In this document: piece after piece, positions 11,219 through 43,791 of the stretch | How the letters are laid out: every line of letters starts with the position of its first letter | Position numbering within the stretch: position 1 is the stretch's first letter | NCBI GenBank assembly: GCA_051866635.1 | Contig: JBJDXJ010000049.1 | Span: 1-64,000 of the forward strand | Source of the DNA: Clostridia bacterium | GTDB taxonomy: Bacteria; Bacillota; Clostridia; UMGS1883 | Direction of reading: 5' to 3' | DNA length: 64,000 bases | Position numbers and translations under genes: made by a program | Notes under the pieces: model-generated | What the model was told of the DNA's origin: nothing | Seen by the model: only the letters and a program-made list of their open reading frames with translations | The model's database searches: none

Positions 11219-11295
11219 GCGCTTGTAGCTCAGTGGATAGAGCACCGGCCTCCGACGCCGGGTTGTCGTAGGTTCGATTCCTATCAAGCGCGCCA
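11219..11295 (+). tRNA. tRNA-Arg(CCG)
   Basis: Cloverleaf: acceptor GCGCTTG/CAAGCGC, anticodon arm CCGGC-CTCCGAC-GCCGG, GGTTCGATTCC T-arm, encoded CCA. Confidence 0.95.
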
Positions 11296-20245: not shown

Positions 20246-20318
20246 TTGAAAAAGTTCTTGACAAACCTCTTTTGAGGTGTTAAGATATACAAGAAGTTTT
20301 TAAAACTTCATTCCGTTT

Positions 20319-20394
20319 CCATAGACAGCGGGCATAAAGATAAGCCCCGCCGAGGAACCTATTTAAGGTTTTTAAAGGTTTTTTGCGTCTATGG
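20319..20394 (+). promoter_or_regulatory. L10 leader RNA
   Basis: ccatagacagcgggc...ccccgccgagg...gcgtctatgg, typical L10-leader architecture upstream of rplJ. Confidence 0.75.
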
Positions 20395-20438
20395 GCAAAA
20401 AACCTTTTTTTCAATATTTGGTATGGAGAGGTGATATA

Positions 20439-21603: not shown

Positions 21604-21679
21604 AGGGGTATAGTTCAGTTGGTAGAATAACGGTCTCCAAAACCGCAGGTCGTGGGTTCAAGTCCTACTGCCCCTGCCA
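21604..21679 (+). tRNA. tRNA-Trp(CCA)
   Basis: Acceptor AGGGGTA/TGCCCCT, anticodon loop CTCCAAA, GGTTCAAGTCC T-arm, encoded CCA. Confidence 0.95.
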
Positions 21680-33707: not shown

Positions 33708-34376
33708 TTGACATATATAAAATTTGTATGTGATGCAATCGAAAATATAAATATTGGGAAACCTATTTATACAAAAGATATAGCAAAAAAAATGGCAGAT
33801 AATTATTGCATGCAAGAAAAAGACGCTGCTCTTGCAACATCTGTTGCTTTTAAAAGGATTATAGATACTAATATAGTACCTCAATTAAGATATTATCAAA
33901 AAGGAATTTATTACAAAGTGACCGCTACACCGTTTGGAGAAACAAAAATAAATAAAGAGCAGCTTATAGCAGATAAATATATACTCCCCGATAGGGGCTA
34001 CGAAACAGGTCTTTCACTTATGCATCAAATGGGTTTAACAACGCAAATTCCAAAAGAGAGAACAATAGCAACAAATGCTGCAAAGGATTGTGCAAGAGCC
34101 GATAAAAAGCTTGGGGTGATAATTAAGCCGCCCAAGGTGAAAATTACAAAGAAAAACAAAGATTATTTGCAGATACTTGATGTGTTGGAGCTGATTGATA
34201 AAGCACCTGTTGACGACCGGCAGACATATATAACTATAGCGAATCAAATAGAAAAAAGAAATCTGCAATACGGTGAATTACTTGCCTTTGCAAATAACTA
34301 TTATAATAAAAAGACAATATTAAATCTTGCAAATACAGCAAGTGCCGGAGGTGTGCATAATGAAACTGCATTTTGA
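33708..34376 (+). CDS. AbiEi-like type IV TA antitoxin
   Basis: wHTH-like N-terminus, GIYY and GYETG...GLTTQIP; coupled to the nucleotidyltransferase gene. Confidence 0.75.
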   Translation: MTYIKFVCDAIENINIGKPIYTKDIAKKMADNYCMQEKDAALATSVAFKRIIDTNIVPQLRYYQKGIYYKVTATPFGETKINKEQLIADKYILPDRGYETGLSLMHQMGLTTQIPKERTIATNAAKDCARADKKLGVIIKPPKVKITKKNKDYLQILDVLELIDKAPVDDRQTYITIANQIEKRNLQYGELLAFANNYYNKKTILNLANTASAGGVHNETAF

Positions 34377-35340
34377 CAGAAATGCCTTTGCCGTAATTTT
34401 AAATACAATACATGAAAGAACCGGTTACAGAACAGATGTACTGGAAAAAGATTATTATGTCGTATTGGTGTTAAAGGAACTGTCGGAATTCCAAAAGAAC
34501 GGATTGCCGGCTTATTTCAAGGGCGGAACTGCACTATATAAAGCCCTGAAAACAACAAATAGATTTTCCGAGGACATTGATTTGTCTGTTGACACTCGCA
34601 ATTGCACACGCAGTCAAAATGATAAAAGACTTGAAAAAGCAACAAAAAGGTACACTGTATTACAAAGAGTCTGTGATGAAGGCAGAACCAATCGCTCAGA
34701 AATTATATCTGTATATAAGTACGAGCCTGTGACCGTCTACGATGCTAACGATAGCTTACAGAGGTTTGGCAAATTGAAAATAGAAGCTACTTCCTTTACT
34801 ATAAGCGAGCCCGTTTCTTCGTTGAAAGTATCTGCCATGATATACAATTTGGCAACAGATGAAGAAAAGGAAATACTTGAATCAGTCTATGATGTAAAGC
34901 CTTTTTCAGTGATGACTATTACTCTTGAAAGGATTTTTGTGGATAAATTATTTGCCGCAGAGTCATATATAAGAACCTCGGATAAGGCAAACCGTGCTTT
35001 TGAAGCGGCAAAGCATATTTATGACTTATCGGTTTTGGAGAAACATCCTCAAATTATTTCTTTACTGCAAGACGAGGAACAGTTAGAAAGATTGCTTGAA
35101 ATACGTATTAAAGAAGAACAAAATCGATTGGACGGTGTTCCAAATCTTTTACCGAAAGATTTTATATTTTTTACGAATGCTGAGGGAAATGTCGCTGTCC
35201 GAAAAGCTTATGAAATCATGCAAAGTCAATATGTAATGAGGGATTGTGATAAAATTGATTTTACACTGGCAACAGAAAGCATTAAAAATATTTATAACCG
35301 TTTACTGTTAAATCCTGCATGGAATAAATGCAATATATGA
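34360..35340 (+). CDS. AbiEii/AbiGii nucleotidyltransferase toxin
   Basis: EKDYY, FKGGTAL, RFSEDIDL, DKL and HIYDL. Confidence 0.9.
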   Translation: MKLHFDRNAFAVILNTIHERTGYRTDVLEKDYYVVLVLKELSEFQKNGLPAYFKGGTALYKALKTTNRFSEDIDLSVDTRNCTRSQNDKRLEKATKRYTVLQRVCDEGRTNRSEIISVYKYEPVTVYDANDSLQRFGKLKIEATSFTISEPVSSLKVSAMIYNLATDEEKEILESVYDVKPFSVMTITLERIFVDKLFAAESYIRTSDKANRAFEAAKHIYDLSVLEKHPQIISLLQDEEQLERLLEIRIKEEQNRLDGVPNLLPKDFIFFTNAEGNVAVRKAYEIMQSQYVMRDCDKIDFTLATESIKNIYNRLLLNPAWNKCNI

Positions 35341-35383: not shown

Positions 35384-35466
35384 TTTTTTACGTTATAGGA
35401 AATTCCTCATTTCTTATTCTGTCTGACTTAGCTAAGCTATTGTCAAAAGCGAGGAGACACTTTGTT
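35384..35466 (+). repeat. Deleted copy of a composite repeat (family A palindrome + 30-bp segment)
   Basis: Inverted homolog of 43832-44002; 35437-35466 matches the reverse complement of 43832-43861 at 29/30. Confidence 0.75.
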
Positions 35467-35517
35467 TTTTTAATACTTTACAGCCCATGTGGTAAAATAT
35501 TAAAAAGGAGTGGTTGT

Positions 35518-36387
35518 ATGACTATAAACTGCGGCATAATAGCCGAATTTAAAAATTACCTTATGGAAGAGGAGAAGTCCTTTTCAACAGTGGACAAGTA
35601 TGTCCGAGATGTAAATAAATTTGCACAAAAGATAGGAGATGAAGAAATCACAAAAGCTAAACTTTTAGAATATAAAACAGCTCTGTGCAAAAGCTATGCC
35701 CCCTCCAGCGTCAATGGAGCAATATCATCCCTAAACGCCTTTTTCGATTTTGTGCAATGCCCCAATTTGAAATTAAAGTCTGTAAAAATCCAGCGGAAAA
35801 TATTTATGAGCAAAGAAAAGGAGCTTTCAAAAAAGGAGTACGAAAGGCTTGTCCGCACCGCAAAAGAAAAGAAAAACAAACGCCTCTTTTACCTTATGCA
35901 AACTATATGTTCCACAGGTATACGGGTTTCCGAACTAAGGTTTGTAACGGTGGGGGCTGTTAAATCGGGAGAAGTGCAAATAAACCTGAAAGGCAAAATA
36001 CGCTGTATTTTACTGCCCGGCAGTCTTATAAAAATGTTAAAACAATATATAAAGGAAGAAAAAATTAAAAAAGGCCCCGTTTTTGTAACAAAAAACGGAA
36101 AGCCATTGGATAGGAGCAATATATGGCACGATATGAAAAACCTTTGCACACAGGCAGGGGTGGATAGCAGAAAAGTGTTCCCCCACAATTTAAGGCATCT
36201 GTTTGCCCGTGCCTTTTATTCAATCCAAAAAGACATTGTCCGTCTGGCAGATATTTTAGGTCATTCAAGCATAAATACAACACGCATTTACACCATGGAA
36301 ACAGGCGACATTCACTTAAAACAGATAGAAAAACTGGGGCTTGTTTGTTTTATAGGAAATTATAAAGAAAATAAAAATACCACATAA
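35518..36387 (+). CDS. Tyrosine recombinase / putative invertase
   Basis: Catalytic set intact: TGIRVSE (R), KGK, HNLRH, LGHS and TTRIY; stop codon lies inside the left recombination site. Confidence 0.93.
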   Translation: MTINCGIIAEFKNYLMEEEKSFSTVDKYVRDVNKFAQKIGDEEITKAKLLEYKTALCKSYAPSSVNGAISSLNAFFDFVQCPNLKLKSVKIQRKIFMSKEKELSKKEYERLVRTAKEKKNKRLFYLMQTICSTGIRVSELRFVTVGAVKSGEVQINLKGKIRCILLPGSLIKMLKQYIKEEKIKKGPVFVTKNGKPLDRSNIWHDMKNLCTQAGVDSRKVFPHNLRHLFARAFYSIQKDIVRLADILGHSSINTTRIYTMETGDIHLKQIEKLGLVCFIGNYKENKNTT

Positions 36388-36402
36388 TCTACATTATGTG
36401 GT
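36376..36402 (+). repeat. Left recombination site (IRL)
   Basis: aat-ACCACATAAT-ctac-ATTATGTGGT; exact reverse complement of 36693-36719. Confidence 0.92.
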
Positions 36403-36433
36403 GAACCAAAATTACATATAGCCTTTGAAGTTA

Positions 36434-36462
36434 ATTATAGCAGTTAATTTACCCATTGTCAA
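36434..36462 (-). promoter_or_regulatory. Consensus sigma-A promoter inside the invertible segment (OFF orientation)
   Basis: Minus strand TTGACA-atgggtaaattaactgc(17)-TATAAT. Confidence 0.9.
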
Positions 36463-36488
36463 GAGTTTTTTACTAATTTTGCATATGG

Positions 36489-36521
36489 CAAAAAGACCAA
36501 TGGAAGCATTGGTCCTTTTGT
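36489..36521 (+). terminator. Hairpin/terminator inside the invertible segment
   Basis: gcaaaaagaccaatg-gaag-cattggtccttttgt. Confidence 0.6.
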
Positions 36522-36692
36522 GTTGCGTTTTTTGTGCACTCAATTAAGTTTTATCAGGTAATTGCAACGTTTTTTAAGGTACAGGGACACTCCCGGTCAT
36601 TCATTTGGGGTGCTTTGGTGAAAAATTAGAACAGCACTTGGCTTTGGGTCGGGGGTGTCCCGTGTGGTGGGCTTTAGTGAGACAGCTTTAAT

Positions 36693-36719
36693 ACCACATA
36701 ATGTAGATTATGTGGTATT
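36693..36719 (-). repeat. Right recombination site (IRR)
   Basis: ACCACATAAT-gtag-ATTATGTGGT-att; asymmetric core inverted relative to IRL. Confidence 0.92.
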
Positions 36720-36721
36720 GA

Positions 36722-36771
36722 CCACCTCATCAGCCGCCCTGCGGCGACAGCTTCCCCTCAAGGGGAAGCCT
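36722..36771. repeat. REP-like double-hairpin element
   Basis: cctcatcagccgccctgcggcgacagcttcccctcaaggggaagcc; GC-rich twin hairpins. Confidence 0.55.
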
Positions 36772-36788
36772 GTGAGGCTTTTTTACAG

Positions 36789-36924
36789 ACAATTTCCTCC
36801 AATGAAATTGTACACGCATGGGGAGGAGCGTTTACCACATTAGCTGCTCCCCTTCGACTGCGTGGTTTCGTTGGTATGTTAATATATAAACAGGTACGGA
36901 TTTAACCGTACAAAAAACGCATTT
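36789..36924 (+). ncRNA. Putative structured leader RNA, copy 1
   Basis: Direct repeat of 37143-37284 with nested stems. Confidence 0.55.
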
Positions 36925-37127
36925 CGTGCCATTTTAAAGGGAAAAACAGAAACACGGCACTTTTAAAAAAAAGATGCCGTGTTTTTTCCGACCTTTTTAA
37001 AAAAAAGATGTCGTTTTACTGCCTTGACTTTAAAATTAAATAATAGCAAAATAAAAAATAGCGATAAATATGCTGATGAATACAGATTACACCAATAATT
37101 ATTGTTTCATCCATATGCATATTTTTT

Positions 37128-37284
37128 GCCAACAAAATTACTACAATTTCCTCCAATGAAGTTGTACACGCATGGGGAGGAGCGCTTACCACATTAGCTG
37201 CTCCCCTTTGACCGCGTGTTTTTGTTGGCAGATTAAATTAATATATAAATAGGTACGGATTTAACCGTACTAAAAAAAGCATTT
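37128..37284 (+). ncRNA. Putative structured leader RNA, copy 2 (with outer stem gccaacaaaa/ttttgttggc)
   Basis: Stems acaatttc/gaagttgt, acacgc/gcgtgt, ggggag/ctcccc and gtacgg/ccgtac. Confidence 0.6.
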
Positions 37285-37421
37285 AATTTTTTTATATAAA
37301 TTTAATTTGGAAATGAAAGCGTCACAAATTCCTGAGGTCGACAGGAAAGGCGATTGATTTTCCATTTCTGTGCGGCGTTGCCGCAAATAAAAAATATAAA
37401 AAATAATGGAGGAAATTAGTA

Positions 37422-40400
37422 ATGAAACTTAAAAGATTTTTAGCCATTGTAATTTCCCTTGCAATGGTACTTTCTATTGTGCCGGCGTTTAGCTTAACAG
37501 CAAGCGCGGCGGATATAACAGATGCCGCCCTTCTTGCCTATGCTACAAGCAGCACAACGGCTTTGTTTGACGCCACAAACCCCGCTCCCACCGCGGTAAG
37601 TGATACTGCAATTGCAACCGCTTGGCCCGAATCCGGCTGGTCGGGAACTATTAATAACGGTTACCTTAATGTCAATGCGGGCCCCAGAATTCAGTGCTAC
37701 ATCGGCTCGTATACAAACGGCGGTCAGGCTGCGAACTTTGTAAACTTGGGCTCCGGCTACGGCTCCGGCAACGACTGGGTGCTTCTCAGATTTACTGCCG
37801 AGTACACATGTGCATGGGGCGACCTTGCTCTTTATGATATTGACGGCAATATCCTTACAGCGGTTCGTTACGGTACAGGCGACTCTAACTGCTTTGCTCC
37901 TTCCTGGGGTCATTCAGGTTGGGGTACACCCTACAGCTTTTCTAACTATACACTTTCCGCAGAAGGTGTTGTAGCTAACCTTACAAGCGGTTCTTCTTTG
38001 ATTGATATTCTTCTTCGAAACTACGATCCCGACGGAACAGCTTCAAGCGGCGACGAATACTACACAGCTACATTCTTTGTTAACGGTACATCTGTCTGCG
38101 TAGGTACATACACAGGTCTCGGTAACTTTAACGGCCTTGGCAAAATCGGCATGAGCCGTGGTTCAGGTAATTCTTGGGAGCGTATTTCCATGAAGACTCC
38201 CCTTGTTTATGCAGGCGACTATCCTGCAACTTCTGATGCTTCAACTATTGCGGCAGCTCTTAGCGCTCTTTCTGTTCCTGCTCTTACAAAGGGCGTGGAT
38301 ATAACACTTCCTGCTACGGCAACAGACTCTATGGGTACAACTGTGGACGTTACATGGACATCTTCCAATACAAGTGTTATTTCAAACACAGGTGTTGTAA
38401 CAGCTCCCGCGGCACTTACAGAAGTTACACTTACACCTTCTGCAACATTTGAAGAGGCAACCGTTACAGGCTCAGCAAAAAAAGTAACCGTGTTCCCTGC
38501 ATCTTATGCAAAAGATAGTATGTATGGGTACTATAAAATCGGCGACAAGGTTGATACATCAAGCATCAGCTGGTATCACCGTCAGACAACAGACGGCAGC
38601 GTTGGTGTAGATGGATTGACAACAACTACCGAAAACGGTGTAACATATTACACATTCCCTGCACTGGGAGGTGTTGGCGGTACTAACGCAAGAACATCCA
38701 TAGGTATTACGGCAGGTAACAGCTACCTTGTTCGTTTCTACTATGGCGGTACTGCTTTAGGCAACGGCGCCGGAAACACATACAATAAGGTATATACAAC
38801 AGCCGGTGCTTATAATGATGAAGTAGCTTTAGACTATGTTTCAGGTACAGCAAGTACAGGTATTACAACCACTGCCAATGTATGGACAGAAATACAGACA
38901 GTATTTACAGCTTCCGAAGGCGCAAACTTCCTTACATTTGTATACAGCTGGCTTGATGCAGGATTAAAGATTGCAGATGTTGAGCTTTACAATGTTACCG
39001 ATTTGTCAAAGACTGTTACTTTAAATATCTTAGACGTGGATGGTAACACCGTTAAAACACTTGAGGAGAGGTGTATATCAGGCGGAAGTGTTACATTTGA
39101 GGCACAGAGCTTTGCATCTAACGGTATATTCTACACTACCGAAGAGAAGACATACGAAAATGTAACAGAAGATGCTACATATACAATTTTTGCAACAGCT
39201 GACGCAAGTAAATATGCTTCTGTTGAAAGTTATACATGGAACTACACCACAGGGGCAGATATTTCATCTACGCTTACAAAGGGTAATATCTCCGGTCTTT
39301 CCGACACTCTTATGACAATTAACTGGGGCAACACAAGACAGGGTATTATTAACTTTAATGTTCCCATAACAAGCGGCCAGCAGCTTGCTTCCGCAACGCT
39401 TACCCTTCGTCTCGGTGGTCAGCAGGGTGATTCTGTCGGTTTTGATGTGTATGCAATGCCCAAATCAAAATCACCCAAGGTGGCAGCAGCTCCCGATTCA
39501 GCTGCAGGCGTAAAGGTAGGTTCATACTCCGGCTCATACTCCGGCGAAGCACAGGACGCTGTAATAGAAGTTCCCCTTACATTCTCTGACTATGTTGACA
39601 CCTCCGAAGGCCTTACATTAAGGCTTGCGGCAAATAGCCAGATGGGTGTGTATTGGGGTGCAAACCAGGGCGAAAGAGCACCTTTCCTTTCCAATATTAC
39701 AATGGGCGAAATTACAGCAACAGCCGTTACGGTTAACTGTGTAGACACAAACAGTACGCTTCTTCAGACAGGTACTCAGTATCATACAAGCTTTTACGGA
39801 TATAACAGTGAATTGATTTACCCCGAATTGGAAATCCCCACAATCGACGGTTATATCTTCAAGAGCAAGAGCGTATCCGGCACTACGGTAACGCTTAAAT
39901 ATGCCCAAGATACACAGGACGACTACTTCTTTGACAATATTACAAATATGAACACAAGGTTCATATCTCTTAATATGCTCGGTGCACATAACGCTTTCAC
40001 CAGCGAAATGACAGACAAGTCAGATGCTGCTGCACTTAAGCAGGAAAATTCAATGGGCGGTGCTTACGGCGGTGCATTAGCTCCCAATACGGCGCTCCCC
40101 AGAAGTAAGGCACAGGACAAAGATACGCTTGAAATGCTCCGTGCAGGTGCCCGTTACTTTGATATTCGTGTTTCCCGTTCCGAATCAAACAGCTCATATT
40201 TAGGTGTATCGGCAAAGCATACAAACGGCGTAATGTACACAACACACGCGCTCCTTGGCGGCGAGTTAAGACCCATTCTTTATACAATCGCTCAGTGGGC
40301 AGAAACTCACCCCGGCGAAATTATTGTTCTTGACTTCCAGGAATTTTATGATTACAATTCCGGATATGACGGAAACTCTACGGCACAGTCATGGAGAGAT

Positions 40401-42641
40401 CTTGATACCCTCCTTACACAGACAGGTGTTAATAACTATGTAACAATCGGCAATCAGTCCCTTAAAAATGTTACATACGGCGATCTTACCTCAAACGGCA
40501 CAAAGGCAGGCATAGTTCTGTTCGGTCGTGCAACAGCAACAAACTCAAGTGTCGGCAAGTTCATCCTTCGCGGTACACTTAACAACGCATTTGAAGGTAA
40601 GGCATATTCAAACTATGACAAGAGCGGAACAAGTATAGGTTCAAGCTACAGTGCAGCCTATATCCAGGCTCAGGTTGACCATATGGACCAGTATCAGTCT
40701 GTAACAGGCGACTCAACCGGCGACAACATTATTTACTGGATGTTCAGAATAATGCAGGGTCAGAGCGAAGGAAGCAACCTTGTTACTCAGGGTGCAAGCG
40801 ATAACACAAGCCTTTACAACGGTATTGTTGCTAATCCCTCTTGGCTTACAGCACTTCCTGTTGTAATGGTTAACACTGTGGGTACAAACACAGACAATAT
40901 CGTTACACTTCTTAAAGAATGTAATGTGCCCACAGAAACAGTTAACTATGTTTATAACGGAACAGTGGTTAAATCAGTTCCCAATGCTGCACTTGTCGGC
41001 ACACTTTACACAAACGACGGCTTCTATGATGAACCTGTCTACAAGCTTATGGCAGGCACAGACGGCGAATACTACGTTTCCGAAACCTTCTACACAGCTC
41101 CTTCCGCAGGCACAGTTACAAAGGTTGTAAAGGGCAGTGCAGTAGAAGTTGACGTTACAAAGCTCGGCAATGTTTACTCATCACGAGGCGGTAAGCTTTA
41201 CGCAGATAAGCTTACAGATGACGGTGCCTACACAGGTAAGGACAGCTTTGCTGCCTTCAACTGGGGCACTACTCCTGCAGACAGAATAGGTGTAGCGGTT
41301 CTCAGTGCAGAAACAGGCAGAAGTGCATATATGCTTTCCGCAACAGAGGTAAGAAAGTACTTTAACACCTCTGCCGGTGCAACAAAGTTCTATGCAATCC
41401 CGGCTGCAACATACCGTTCACTTGACCTTTATAATGCAAGCGAAGTTATCTCCTATATGACAGATGCTAACCTTGTTGCTACCATAAGCCACGGCAACTG
41501 CGGCGATACAAGTGTAGGTACAGCTGAAATTATACTTGACACAGATAAAATTTCTGCAATTGCAGCAAGCGGTGACGTTGTAATTTTAGGTGACAGCGTA
41601 AACGGTCTTTACGGCTTAAAGAACGATATAAGTATTGTTTCTTGCTACGTTGTTGAAAGCACAACAGAAGGTGCTACAACTACAACAGTTGTTAAACCCG
41701 GCGGCACATACACACTTGGCACGGCTAAAGTTTATGAAGATGGAGATAATAAACTTTATGCACCCGAAAGCAATGTAACTGTAACCGGTGATATGACATT
41801 TAACGGATATAATACTTTAGGTGCAAACGTTGTTAACGGTGCACAGGTACGTATTGGCGACGGTGTTGATAAAGACGGCAAGATTTCCACAGGCAGCGGT
41901 CTCAGATTTATCACAACGGTTAACGCAGTCGATACAATTGCCGGTCTTACAAATATTACAGAAATAGGTGTTCGTATTACGGCTGAAGGCAACAGTGCAT
42001 ACAAAGATATTGTTACAACAGACTGGCAGACAGAAGACCACTCGGTATTCACATCTGCTCTCACAAACCTTGAAGTAACAAACTACAACCGTAAATTCAC
42101 AGCTACTCCTTATGTTAAGTATACTGATACAGCAACAGGCGATGAAGTAGTGGTTCTCGGTTCTACTGAAACTACAAGAAGTATCTATCAGGTAGCCGCA
42201 GGTCTCCTTGCAAACGGTTACACAACAGATAACGGTACAGGAAGTGACCCCGAAGACCATACAGGTGAAATGCCCGAAGTACTTGTAAAGGTTCTTAACG
42301 CATATGTAAACCAGACAGGTATCCGTCTTACACTTGCAGACAGCACACTTACAGCACGTACAACAGGCTCAGGTAGCTACACAGGCGACGCATTCTTTGA
42401 AGTAAGCGGTGCAACTACAGGAACTGATGAAGAAGGTAATACAACATATACATGTGTACTTACACCTGTAGGCAGTGCAAAGATCAATACAAATTACTGG
42501 AACGAATATGTAAGAATTAACAACAACAATAAAGCAATTGCCGGATATGTAGAACTCGCAGACAACGGCAACAATACATATACACTTACATTTAAGTACG
42601 GTAAATATAGTGTAGACAAAGCAGCAGCTTCTGCTGAATAA
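37422..42641 (+). CDS. Large secreted/surface protein with Ig-like and lectin-like domains and a PI-PLC X-like catalytic domain
   Basis: Signal peptide; atrophied-Ig motif (VTWTSSNTSVISNTGVVTAP); PI-PLC motifs LGAHNAF, QDKDTLEMLRAGARYFDIRV, THA and HPGEIIVLDF. Confidence 0.75.
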   Translation: MKLKRFLAIVISLAMVLSIVPAFSLTASAADITDAALLAYATSSTTALFDATNPAPTAVSDTAIATAWPESGWSGTINNGYLNVNAGPRIQCYIGSYTNGGQAANFVNLGSGYGSGNDWVLLRFTAEYTCAWGDLALYDIDGNILTAVRYGTGDSNCFAPSWGHSGWGTPYSFSNYTLSAEGVVANLTSGSSLIDILLRNYDPDGTASSGDEYYTATFFVNGTSVCVGTYTGLGNFNGLGKIGMSRGSGNSWERISMKTPLVYAGDYPATSDASTIAAALSALSVPALTKGVDITLPATATDSMGTTVDVTWTSSNTSVISNTGVVTAPAALTEVTLTPSATFEEATVTGSAKKVTVFPASYAKDSMYGYYKIGDKVDTSSISWYHRQTTDGSVGVDGLTTTTENGVTYYTFPALGGVGGTNARTSIGITAGNSYLVRFYYGGTALGNGAGNTYNKVYTTAGAYNDEVALDYVSGTASTGITTTANVWTEIQTVFTASEGANFLTFVYSWLDAGLKIADVELYNVTDLSKTVTLNILDVDGNTVKTLEERCISGGSVTFEAQSFASNGIFYTTEEKTYENVTEDATYTIFATADASKYASVESYTWNYTTGADISSTLTKGNISGLSDTLMTINWGNTRQGIINFNVPITSGQQLASATLTLRLGGQQGDSVGFDVYAMPKSKSPKVAAAPDSAAGVKVGSYSGSYSGEAQDAVIEVPLTFSDYVDTSEGLTLRLAANSQMGVYWGANQGERAPFLSNITMGEITATAVTVNCVDTNSTLLQTGTQYHTSFYGYNSELIYPELEIPTIDGYIFKSKSVSGTTVTLKYAQDTQDDYFFDNITNMNTRFISLNMLGAHNAFTSEMTDKSDAAALKQENSMGGAYGGALAPNTALPRSKAQDKDTLEMLRAGARYFDIRVSRSESNSSYLGVSAKHTNGVMYTTHALLGGELRPILYTIAQWAETHPGEIIVLDFQEFYDYNSGYDGNSTAQSWRDLDTLLTQTGVNNYVTIGNQSLKNVTYGDLTSNGTKAGIVLFGRATATNSSVGKFILRGTLNNAFEGKAYSNYDKSGTSIGSSYSAAYIQAQVDHMDQYQSVTGDSTGDNIIYWMFRIMQGQSEGSNLVTQGASDNTSLYNGIVANPSWLTALPVVMVNTVGTNTDNIVTLLKECNVPTETVNYVYNGTVVKSVPNAALVGTLYTNDGFYDEPVYKLMAGTDGEYYVSETFYTAPSAGTVTKVVKGSAVEVDVTKLGNVYSSRGGKLYADKLTDDGAYTGKDSFAAFNWGTTPADRIGVAVLSAETGRSAYMLSATEVRKYFNTSAGATKFYAIPAATYRSLDLYNASEVISYMTDANLVATISHGNCGDTSVGTAEIILDTDKISAIAASGDVVILGDSVNGLYGLKNDISIVSCYVVESTTEGATTTTVVKPGGTYTLGTAKVYEDGDNKLYAPESNVTVTGDMTFNGYNTLGANVVNGAQVRIGDGVDKDGKISTGSGLRFITTVNAVDTIAGLTNITEIGVRITAEGNSAYKDIVTTDWQTEDHSVFTSALTNLEVTNYNRKFTATPYVKYTDTATGDEVVVLGSTETTRSIYQVAAGLLANGYTTDNGTGSDPEDHTGEMPEVLVKVLNAYVNQTGIRLTLADSTLTARTTGSGSYTGDAFFEVSGATTGTDEEGNTTYTCVLTPVGSAKINTNYWNEYVRINNNNKAIAGYVELADNGNNTYTLTFKYGKYSVDKAAASAE

Positions 42642-42895: not shown

Positions 42896-43228
42896 AAGTA
42901 TCCTCCCCCTTCTATCGAAAATGAGAGGATGGAATAACCGCCCGGCTTTTACACTGTTTTCAGTCTTATCTTTAACATCGGATTGCTCCGACAAGGTACA
43001 GTATACACTAAATTTATACATCTTTTTATAAAACTCTGCCCTGCAACTTTTCGGTTGCAGGGCATTTTAATGCTAAAAATACGATTAGTTGCAGATGTAT
43101 TGATTTTGCAACATATCCTGTGTATTTTTAGAATGCTTACGAAAAAATAAAAAAATTCGTGCAAACTGTTGATTTTTTCGTGCAAATTAAATATAATAAT
43201 AGTGAAGCCAAGAAAAGGAGATGATTAT

Positions 43229-43504
43229 ATGGCAACTTCAACTAATATAAGTATTCGTATGGATACCGAAACAAAAGCAAAAGCTGACGCACTTTTCGCC
43301 GAATTGGGTATGAATTTAACAACAGCTTTTAACATTTTTGTACGCCAATCGCTCAGAGAAGGTAAAATACCATTTGAAATATCACTTAATCAGCCTAACG
43401 CAGAAACAATAGCAGCTATGATGGAGGCAGAGAGGATAGCAACCGACACATCTGTTAAAGGATATACAGATATGGATAAGATGTTTGCCGACCTTGCCCG
43501 ATGA
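43229..43504 (+). CDS. RelB/DinJ antitoxin
   Basis: ISIRMD...LGMNLTTAFNIFVRQ...IPF, PNAET. Confidence 0.92.
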   Translation: MATSTNISIRMDTETKAKADALFAELGMNLTTAFNIFVRQSLREGKIPFEISLNQPNAETIAAMMEAERIATDTSVKGYTDMDKMFADLAR

Positions 43505-43791
43505 ACAAAACAAAATATGAGGTAAAAACCACCTCACAGTTTAAAAAAGATTATAAAGCTGCAATTAAGCGTAATTGTGATATTGAGCATTTACAAAAGG
43601 TAATTACAAAATTGGCTAACGGCGAAAATCTTGATGATAAATACTATGACCATCCATTGACAGGACAATGGAAAGGATACCGAGAATGCCACATTGAGCC
43701 GGATTGGTTATTGATTTATTTAATCAAGAAAGATGTTCTTGTTTTAACTCTTACACGAACAGGGACACATTCAGACTTATTTGGAAAATAA
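43501..43791 (+). CDS. YafQ-family mRNA interferase toxin
   Basis: FKKDYK, DHPLTG, RECHIEPDWLLIY and RTGTHSDLF. Confidence 0.93.
   Translation: MNKTKYEVKTTSQFKKDYKAAIKRNCDIEHLQKVITKLANGENLDDKYYDHPLTGQWKGYRECHIEPDWLLIYLIKKDVLVLTLTRTGTHSDLFGK

Follow-up and report, generated by a model that had tools for sequence, protein, structure and literature searches.

The leader of a large surface-protein gene in an uncultured gut Clostridia lineage contains a duplicated element that is a genus-restricted, structured 5′-leader RNA of phase-variable surface-protein genes and that has not been described previously. The element lies in a 64,000-nucleotide (nt) stretch of DNA, here called the window, comprising positions 1 to 64,000 of the forward strand of contig JBJDXJ010000049.1 (assembly GCA_051866635.1; Clostridia, UMGS1883). 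Copy 1 spans positions 36789–36924 and copy 2 spans positions 37143–37284, and both precede a gene encoding a secreted surface protein. The element probably controls translation rather than termination, because its most conserved hairpin mirrors the ribosome-binding site (RBS) of the gene family. The more specific proposal, that the element acts as an anti-RBS riboregulator, is our working interpretation, held tentatively and at somewhat less than an even chance.

Two pairs of direct repeats define the copies. The first pair (36789–36882 and 37143–37236) is 94 nt long and 90% identical, with a spacing of 354, and the second (36879–36917 and 37238–37276) is 39 nt long with 95% identity. A 19-nt core of the repeat occurs twice in the window versus zero occurrences expected from 100 shuffles. 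The 2.33-Mb genome from which the window derives (G000) possesses two copies of the element, both in this one leader. An initial annotation had reported two highly similar copies 354 bp apart, a leader of about 700 nt free of open reading frames (ORFs), and an RNA that it did not recognize, and these descriptions hold. Specifically, the interval from the right inverted repeat of an upstream switch to the ATG (36720–37421) contains no ORF of at least 60 amino acids; one 62-amino-acid frame with a GTG start (36655–36843) begins upstream of that repeat and extends into the leader. Rfam 15 at gathering scores yields five matches in the window and none at 36789–37284. At E ≤ 10, 18 weak matches fall within 36350–37450, the best at 22.6 bits versus a cut-off of 90, and none covers the P1–P3 core of either copy. 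Literature searches on inverton-linked leader RNAs, at the level of abstracts, yielded no description of the element. The 218 nt between the copies have no other copy elsewhere in the genome. The idea that they are a decayed second inverton was rejected: their alignment to four invertible segments, in both orientations, falls within the shuffled range.

The core of the element consists of a hairpin, P1, followed by a stem, P2, that encloses another stem, P3. In copy 1, folding and alignment place P1 at 36789–36811 on the plus strand (ACAATTTC, the loop CTCCAAT, and GAAATTGT). The RNAalifold consensus places P2 at 36813–36818 and 36859–36864, enclosing P3 at 36820–36829 and 36843–36852, with a 13-nt P3 loop, GTTTACCACATTA. 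At 36863–36892 follow a strand, TGGTTTCGTTGG, that can pair with 36800–36811 to form an alternative helix, P1′, and then an A/T box, GTTAATATATAA. In copy 2, the core (37127–37230, plus strand) is a three-way junction of P1 (37143–37165), P2/P3 (37167–37218), and a closing helix, P0, made of GCCAACAAAA and TTTTGTTGGC; its minimum free energy (MFE) structure equals the centroid, with a z-score of −5.9. Every stem that the initial annotation had named is there, namely P1 (ACAATTTC/GAA(A/G)TTGT), P2 (CACGC/GCGTG), P3 (GGGGAG.AGC/GCT.CTCCCC), the closing stem of copy 2, and a terminal hairpin, GTACGG/CCGTAC, located at 36894–36911 in copy 1 and at 37253–37270 in copy 2. The A>G change does maintain pairing as G–U. 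The terminal hairpin belongs to the window lineage only, and it shows no conservation in G001 or G004 which, together with G003, are metagenome-assembled genomes (MAGs) of the same uncultured Clostridia genus.

The pattern of sequence change identifies a structured element at the RNA level and on the plus strand. Folding z-scores for copies 1 and 2 are −4.1 and −3.5 on the plus strand and −1.9 and −1.6 on the minus strand. In the four full sequences, which represent two lineages (4–6 sequences in total, one genus, all MAGs), 6 of the 23 pairs change on both sides, all of them within P2/P3. Consensus pairing is realized in 98.9% of cells versus 38–50% when partners are slid, and none of 500 shuffles reaches the covariation score. 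P1 behaves in another manner: it is near-invariant in the four full elements, its three changes are all A>G, and each yields a G–U pair on the plus strand. The P1-like units at G004:C2 likewise change only to G–U. With these compensatory and strand-specific changes, the element is, by prediction, a structured cis-regulatory leader RNA of the generic kind, positioned between promoter and start codon.

A second, long-range pairing accompanies P1. The P1 loop and 3′ arm (CCAATGxxxTTG) can pair with a conserved block adjacent to a GTTAAT(T)ATATAA box, forming P1′. As scored with a purpose-written script, this block outscores the rest of the downstream leader as a complement in all four full elements (12, 11, 11, and 12 of 12 pairs), at distances of 74, 74, 199, and 267 nt, and it is retained despite 110–250 nt of intervening hairpin arrays. 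Those arrays, at ~430–625 in L003 (G001:C179) and ~1270–1385 in L014 (G004:C50), minus strand, consist of short hairpins with the constant linker GCGATAT and are inserted between P2 and the P1′ 3′ strand; G001 has three more ATATCGC sequences further on. P1 and P1′ are mutually exclusive, and the two copies are predicted to resolve the competition differently. In copy 1, the P1′ state is calculated at −34.5 kcal/mol versus −30.7 for the P1 state, and the MFE structure uses P1′. In copy 2, the junction containing P0 and P1 is calculated at −44.7 kcal/mol versus −32.7 for the P1′ state.

In copy 1, the 5′ strand of P0 is gone: a 70-nt insert replaced 14 nt that included CCAAC. The insert, at 36718–36787 on the plus strand, is a dispersed hairpin repeat that ends in a U-run. 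It was recognized by comparison with a related-strain contig that joins 36717 to 36788 with 14 other nt containing CCAAC. Coverage from that source is small and patchy, and it was used for this joint, for strain differences, and for a compensatory change in the terminator described below. A metagenome depth peak (36737–36803) lies on the insert, partial copies of which exist at G000:C57 and C52, and similar hairpin repeats (GTCAGCCTATGGCTGAC...) are scattered through the G001, G003, and G004 leaders.

The link to translation comes from P1 itself. Across 11 nt, the 5′ arm and loop of P1, AATTTCCTCCA, match exactly the reverse complement of the surface-protein RBS, TGGAGGAAATT, at 37407–37417; RBS and ATG together occupy 37407–37424 on the plus strand. 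In copy 1, the anti-RBS 11-mer lies at 36791–36801, within P1. In copy 2, the complementary stretch is longer: ATTACTA(CA)ATTTCCTCCA at 37137–37155 (plus strand) complements 37407–37423, and the predicted duplex (−20.4 kcal/mol, 17 pairs with a 2-nt bulge) reaches the AUG. The 11-mer TGGAGGAAATT occurs 11 times in G000. Two occurrences are the P1 copies in antisense, and only two are at ribosome-binding sites, those of the window gene and of a paralog on C34. Among 1634 crude candidate starts preceded by a Shine-Dalgarno (SD) sequence, the window gene RBS ranks in the top three for complementarity to P1, and the top match, of 14 nt, lies inside a coding frame. The same 11-mer is present at the RBS of G004:C50, the G003 element's own gene has a 10-nt match, and in two short variants of the element GGAGG directly follows P2. 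Conserved complementarity of the type that characterizes a putative anti-SD riboregulator is a feature of the family, as far as sequence can tell.

The element resides next to a phase switch. Specifically, a gene for a 315-amino-acid tyrosine recombinase (35440–36387, plus strand; Pfam Phage_integrase, E 3.3e-26, plus an N-terminal SAM-like domain) is followed by a left inverted repeat, IR-L (36376–36402), which overlaps the recombinase stop codon, and by a right inverted repeat, IR-R (36693–36719). The 27-nt arms are 100% complementary and 290 nt apart. Between them lies a promoter, TTGACA-17-TATAAT (36434–36462, minus strand), with 12 of 12 matches and a TG extension, so copy 1 does stand behind an invertible promoter, as had been claimed. 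As assembled, the promoter points away from the surface-protein gene and the switch is OFF. It is likewise OFF in G001 and G003, and it is ON in G004:C50, where the promoter faces the element; both orientations are thus known from comparison between genomes, not within one sample. With inverted repeats, promoter, recombinase, and both orientations, the switch is an inverton. The promoter lies inside the invertible segment and the element lies outside of it. No inversion was found among DNA contigs covering the locus, coverage of which is patchy and uninformative for the uncovered parts. As presently oriented (OFF), the invertible segment also contains a terminator-like hairpin (36495–36514, plus strand), placed to halt read-through from the recombinase gene; G004:C50 has a 20-bp counterpart at the corresponding position.

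The same arrangement recurs wherever the element is found. BLAST and a covariance model, R1, identify relatives in only three other MAGs, all of the same genus. Full-length single copies exist at G001:C179 and G004:C50, and short variants at G003:C118 and G004:C2 preserve the P1 plus P2/P3 architecture with different loops. Given the single copies in G001 and G004, the duplication belongs to the window's own lineage, and it is evidently recent and confined there. At all five loci, the right inverted repeat of a homologous inverton, with a homologous recombinase adjacent, immediately precedes the element. Downstream comes a large secreted surface protein with a signal peptide of the same type; it either follows at once or is separated from the element by small membrane ORFs. 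With two genome copies, both here, and this shared context in five of five related loci, the element is not a dispersed miniature inverted-repeat transposable element. The G004:C2 leader has also been rearranged or duplicated. Upstream of its P1 (L025/L011), two direct repeats 155 nt apart contain an IR-like sequence and, after it, a P1-like hairpin with a different loop, ACGATTTC ATTTGAT GAAATTGT, and flank an N-masked stretch.

Beyond the genus, neither BLAST against 60 relatives nor R1 against all 64 family genomes detected the element. A P1 pattern with up to three mismatches, searched against all 87 order genomes, additionally matched a coding stretch at G003:C58, a paralog RBS at G003:C104, and one site at G084:C71. 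In a one-genome-per-species collection, the exact pattern matched five stretches, of which three are known genus members; the other two, which fall within coding sequence in Chloroflexota MAGs and have no structure after them, were discarded. Metagenome contigs and viral contigs gave zero matches, and phages and plasmids gave none.

The inverton is more widespread than the element. Recombinase homologs occur at 13 places in 7 of 10 genus genomes, 10 with a readable inverton, and 6 of these 10 same-family invertons lack P1; thus, the switch does not need P1. The family shares an inverted-repeat core, ACCACATAAT-N4-ATTATGTGGT, each beside a tyrosine recombinase of 280–315 amino acids. Its sites include G000:C31, C35, C38, and C49, six other genus genomes, and metagenome loci L042–L159, and its members drive surface proteins, small membrane proteins, and glycosyltransferase-like genes. 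The inverted-repeat pattern alone occurs in at least 118 metagenome stretches, human gut among them. Among the 118 stretches listed, no P1-like 23-mer (≤5 substitutions) lies beside the repeats; the only three P1-like matches are thousands of bases from the repeats, and an R1 search of 100 of the stretches gave zero matches. The invariant P3 loop (36830–36842), (G)TTTACCACATTA, has TACCACAT in common with the recombinase half-site TACCACATAAT. The loop could also pair in RNA with the 3′ half of IR-R, a match that is imperfect in G004:C50.

Our hypothesis, which we regard as the most economical one, is that the element would operate as a gated anti-RBS. The anti-RBS would be the 5′ arm and loop, AAUUUCCUCCA, of P1, a weak hairpin of invariant sequence, and the covarying P2/P3 domain would provide a scaffold or a binding site for some factor. 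The closing strand could pair either with the upstream CCAAC box, generating P0 and the three-way junction, as predicted for copy 2, or with the P1 loop and 3′ arm, in which case P1′ would open P1, as predicted for copy 1. With P1 closed, the anti-RBS would be half buried and the RBS free. With P1′ formed, the anti-RBS would be released to pair with UGGAGGAAAUU at the start of a surface-protein mRNA, on the same transcript or on paralogous transcripts. Such pairing would lower translation and probably mRNA stability as well. Copy 1, which lacks its P0 strand and precedes a terminator, may for that reason be transcribed as a short RNA in the ON state of the inverton.

Several observations weigh against this hypothesis. 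No RNA sequencing run was found to contain the stretch. The MFE structure of the whole 783-nt leader contains no P1:RBS pairing; in it, the partner of the RBS is the nearby early coding region. Accessibility of the seed is moderate (mean unpaired probability 0.43–0.45), and the RBS of G004:C2 matches P1 over only 7 nt. We considered whether the P1 flank and the RBS spacer covary locus by locus and rejected the idea: in cross-locus duplex controls, own pairs can be told from foreign ones for copy 2 only, and the G004:C50 flank pairs with the window RBS at −19.7 versus its own RBS at −18.3. Moreover, GGAGGAAATT is a good RBS that is common to the gene family, including paralogs without P1 in their leaders. 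Paralogy alone can explain the RBS motif as a family trait, and P1 could be an inverted fossil of that site. Anti-RBS activity also leaves P2/P3 and the invariant 13-nt loop without an assigned role, and the covariation that defines P2/P3 derives from one deep split between two lineages, and thus from few independent events.

One alternative keeps the antisense principle and changes the target. According to this idea, the element is a trans-acting, phase-variable riboregulator: in the ON state, a short RNA made from copy 1, or the whole leader, silences a constitutive surface-protein paralog so that the cell wears a single coat protein. The terminator-like hairpin that the initial annotation had noted after copy 1 is real (36950–36990, plus strand): it has 15-nt arms (36950–36964 and 36970–36984), a 5-nt loop, and a U-run. 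It is also maintained in the related strain, where C36953A is compensated by G36981T and C36977T produces a G–U pair; the contig from that strain has IR-R, element, and terminator in the same layout, and its copy 1 contains copy-2-like bases. Copy 1 favors P1′, which would leave the 5′ arm less paired. The longest complements to P1 are in constitutive paralogs that lack an inverton, 13 nt at G000:C34 and at its ortholog G001:C97 and 18 nt at G003:C104, versus 11 nt for the element's own gene in the window and 10 nt in G003. However, complementarity extends to the element's own gene, which the RNA would then silence as well, no terminator follows the element in G001, G004:C50, or G003, and the pattern comes from three genomes only, in which paralogy alone explains the similar RBSs. 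We consider a trans-acting role unlikely. In its fullest form, the inverton would also silence a default surface-protein paralog through leader-RNA antisense at its RBS, an RNA-only mutual-exclusion circuit in which the duplicated copy is a stand-alone, terminated riboregulator; this we offer as a speculation that is probably wrong. Such a device would be an RNA analog of Salmonella FljA or Bacteroides UpxZ.

The initial annotation favored a different function, a module such as a processive antiterminator that accompanies each promoter. The first part, a put/EAR-like antiterminator, with which we group a riboswitch-like attenuator, would allow polymerase to pass the copy 1 terminator and other hairpins in leader and gene, and it has a certain logic. 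A strong terminator lying 40 nt downstream of copy 1 would, if not passed, keep transcription from the inverton promoter out of the gene, leaders at all of the loci are long and full of inserted hairpin repeats, and the conserved unpaired positions (the 13-nt loop and a 6-nt bulge) could contact polymerase or a ligand. Against this, there is no Rfam match of any kind, and the window lineage alone has the strong terminator: in the leaders of G004:C50, G001, and G003, terminator-like sites on the gene strand are weak or absent. Pairing with the terminator 5′ arm is unconvincing, at 5 bp or fewer. The genome encodes a single NusG and no LoaP- or UpxY-like paralog that could serve as a specialized NusG. 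Finally, antitermination leaves the mirroring of the RBS by P1 unexplained. We found no positive evidence for it and judge it improbable. With regard to a riboswitch, the observations are the conserved 13-nt loop and 6-nt bulge, the mutually exclusive P1 and P1′, and no terminator/antiterminator pair identified; the controlled genes, which encode surface proteins rather than metabolic functions, suggest no ligand.

The second part, one module per promoter, is not supported. G001:C179 and G004:C50 have single copies, and the second candidate promoter, TTGACT-17-CAAAAT (37024–37052, plus strand), is a weak, promoter-like site with 9 of 12 matches, of which the region contains four versus 4.1 expected in shuffles. 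A TTGACA at the 5′ edge of P1 was also considered as a −35 box and was rejected: it is present in only two of six copies and has no −10 at the right distance. A leader peptide was discarded as well. A 13-codon ATG...TAG frame is open in all four full elements but has no SD, its changes are the compensatory-pair changes, and it comprises only three codons in G004:C2.

Two further possibilities were weighed. The first is that P1 is an inverted RBS fossil, or that the P1 and RBS repeats together with an IR-like P3 loop serve the recombinase as DNA, in which case the RNA fold would be non-regulatory. P1 is the reverse complement of the RBS region (across 18 nt in G003), the P3 loop TTACCACAT resembles the half-site TACCACATAAT, and leaders in the genus readily duplicate and rearrange, as in the 354-nt repeat of the window and the 155-nt units of G004:C2. 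Nonetheless, six compensatory pairs and changes restricted to G–U on one strand point to selection on RNA, P1 is near-invariant across loci with flanks that cannot be aligned, unlike a neutral fossil, and the switch does not need P1, which six of the ten readable invertons lack. The negative result for inversions noted above, patchy coverage included, extends to inversion between P1 and the RBS. A DNA-level site or relic is highly improbable in our estimation. The second possibility, that the element is an mRNA stabilizer or processing module in which the fold and A/U box form a 5′ protection or endonuclease site that sets the half-life of the 5-kb message, draws on a very stable fold (z −4 to −6), a conserved single-stranded GUUAAU(U)AUAUAA box directly after P1′ in four of four elements, and a stable hairpin after that box in both window copies, but it is very unlikely given that the element is not at the predicted transcript 5′ end, where the IR-R hairpin and an insert come before it, and that neither the invariant loop sequence nor the alternative helix would be needed.

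The gene downstream (37422–42641, plus strand) encodes a protein of 1739 amino acids with a signal peptide. Its only Pfam match is aBig_2, and an NCBIfam scan yielded nothing. Its C-terminal ~270 amino acids recur in at least 15 G000 paralogs at 36–62% identity, have no Pfam or NCBIfam name, and may constitute an unnamed cell-wall anchoring domain. Comparison of paralog leaders revealed a second conserved motif, a small hairpin with the invariant loop AGGTCGA (37331–37345, plus strand). This hairpin precedes eight surface-protein paralog starts in four genomes, ~75–180 nt upstream, and, in addition to the window, it is present at G000:C34, G000:C31, G001:C97, G003:C118, G003:C104, G004:C50, and G004:C2. 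Its stems vary (CCTG/CAGG, CCTTTG/CAAAGG, and CTTTG/CAGGG), and it occurs in leaders with or without P1. Toxin–antitoxin modules flank the locus: on one side (33708–35340), an AbiEii-family protein (34327–35340) preceded by a 222-amino-acid ORF without a family, and on the other, a RelB/YafQ pair (43169–43791). Elsewhere in the window, Rfam identifies an L10 leader (20301–20419) and two Gut-1 RNAs (RF01706; 11329–11403 and 21927–22001; 69.9 and 69.5 bits), each following a tRNA gene (11219–11292 and 21604–21676, respectively).

Invertible promoters are common in gut bacteria, and the RNA events that follow a flip are known for very few systems. Here, in a gut Clostridia lineage without cultured members, phase-variable surface proteins are linked to a structured leader that had not been described. 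Its sequence points to a mechanism specific enough to test, in which two competing helices would gate an anti-RBS arm. Were the element to act in trans as well, RNA would be doing what, to our knowledge, has so far been the work of proteins, namely FljA and UpxZ: limiting expression to a single surface protein at any one time. Practical value is limited for now, as only four MAG-level genomes carry the element and the lineage is uncultured.

As an RNA motif the element is new, its apparent principle is familiar, and it falls in none of the known families with which we compared it. In Firmicutes, SD-sequestering leaders and anti-SD small RNAs with C-rich loops, such as RsaE/RoxS, act at ribosome-binding sites. 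Like the latter, the element has a C-rich loop (CCUCC) that complements the RBS, its complementarity extends into the A/U-rich spacer, and one copy is followed by a terminator. Unlike these families, to which it has no sequence or structure match, it is a 5′ leader behind an inverton, with its seed half in a stem and a competing long-range helix. Bacteroides capsule loci combine invertible promoters with an antiterminator, UpxY, that acts on the leader and a cross-inhibitor, UpxZ. There, as here, phase-variable promoters drive surface structures and a 5′ leader is involved; in Bacteroides, control across loci also ensures that a single product is made at a time. The Bacteroides machinery is protein-based, and UpxY is NusG-like, whereas the Clostridia genome has one NusG, and any cross-control would be RNA-based. 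The put RNA of phage HK022 and EAR are processive antiterminator RNAs. Like them, the element is a structured RNA of 70–140 nt within the leader of a long transcription unit, with a terminator downstream in the present case. It differs in that it has no Rfam match and its terminator partner is not conserved in orthologous leaders.

In Clostridioides difficile, at flgB and cwpV, a tyrosine-recombinase switch and a long, structured 5′ untranslated region jointly control a surface structure, and control beyond transcription initiation is documented; the flgB region contains the cyclic di-GMP riboswitch Cd1, and the cwpV leader contains an orientation-dependent terminator (PMC5914908). The promoter at these loci lies upstream of the switch, whereas in the present locus it lies inside the switch. 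Moreover, in contrast to Cd1, the element is not a cyclic di-GMP riboswitch or a member of any other Rfam family, and it lies outside the invertible segment. The flgB and cwpV leaders are the nearest documented cases: they, too, belong to the Clostridia, and they, too, combine a DNA switch with a leader RNA.

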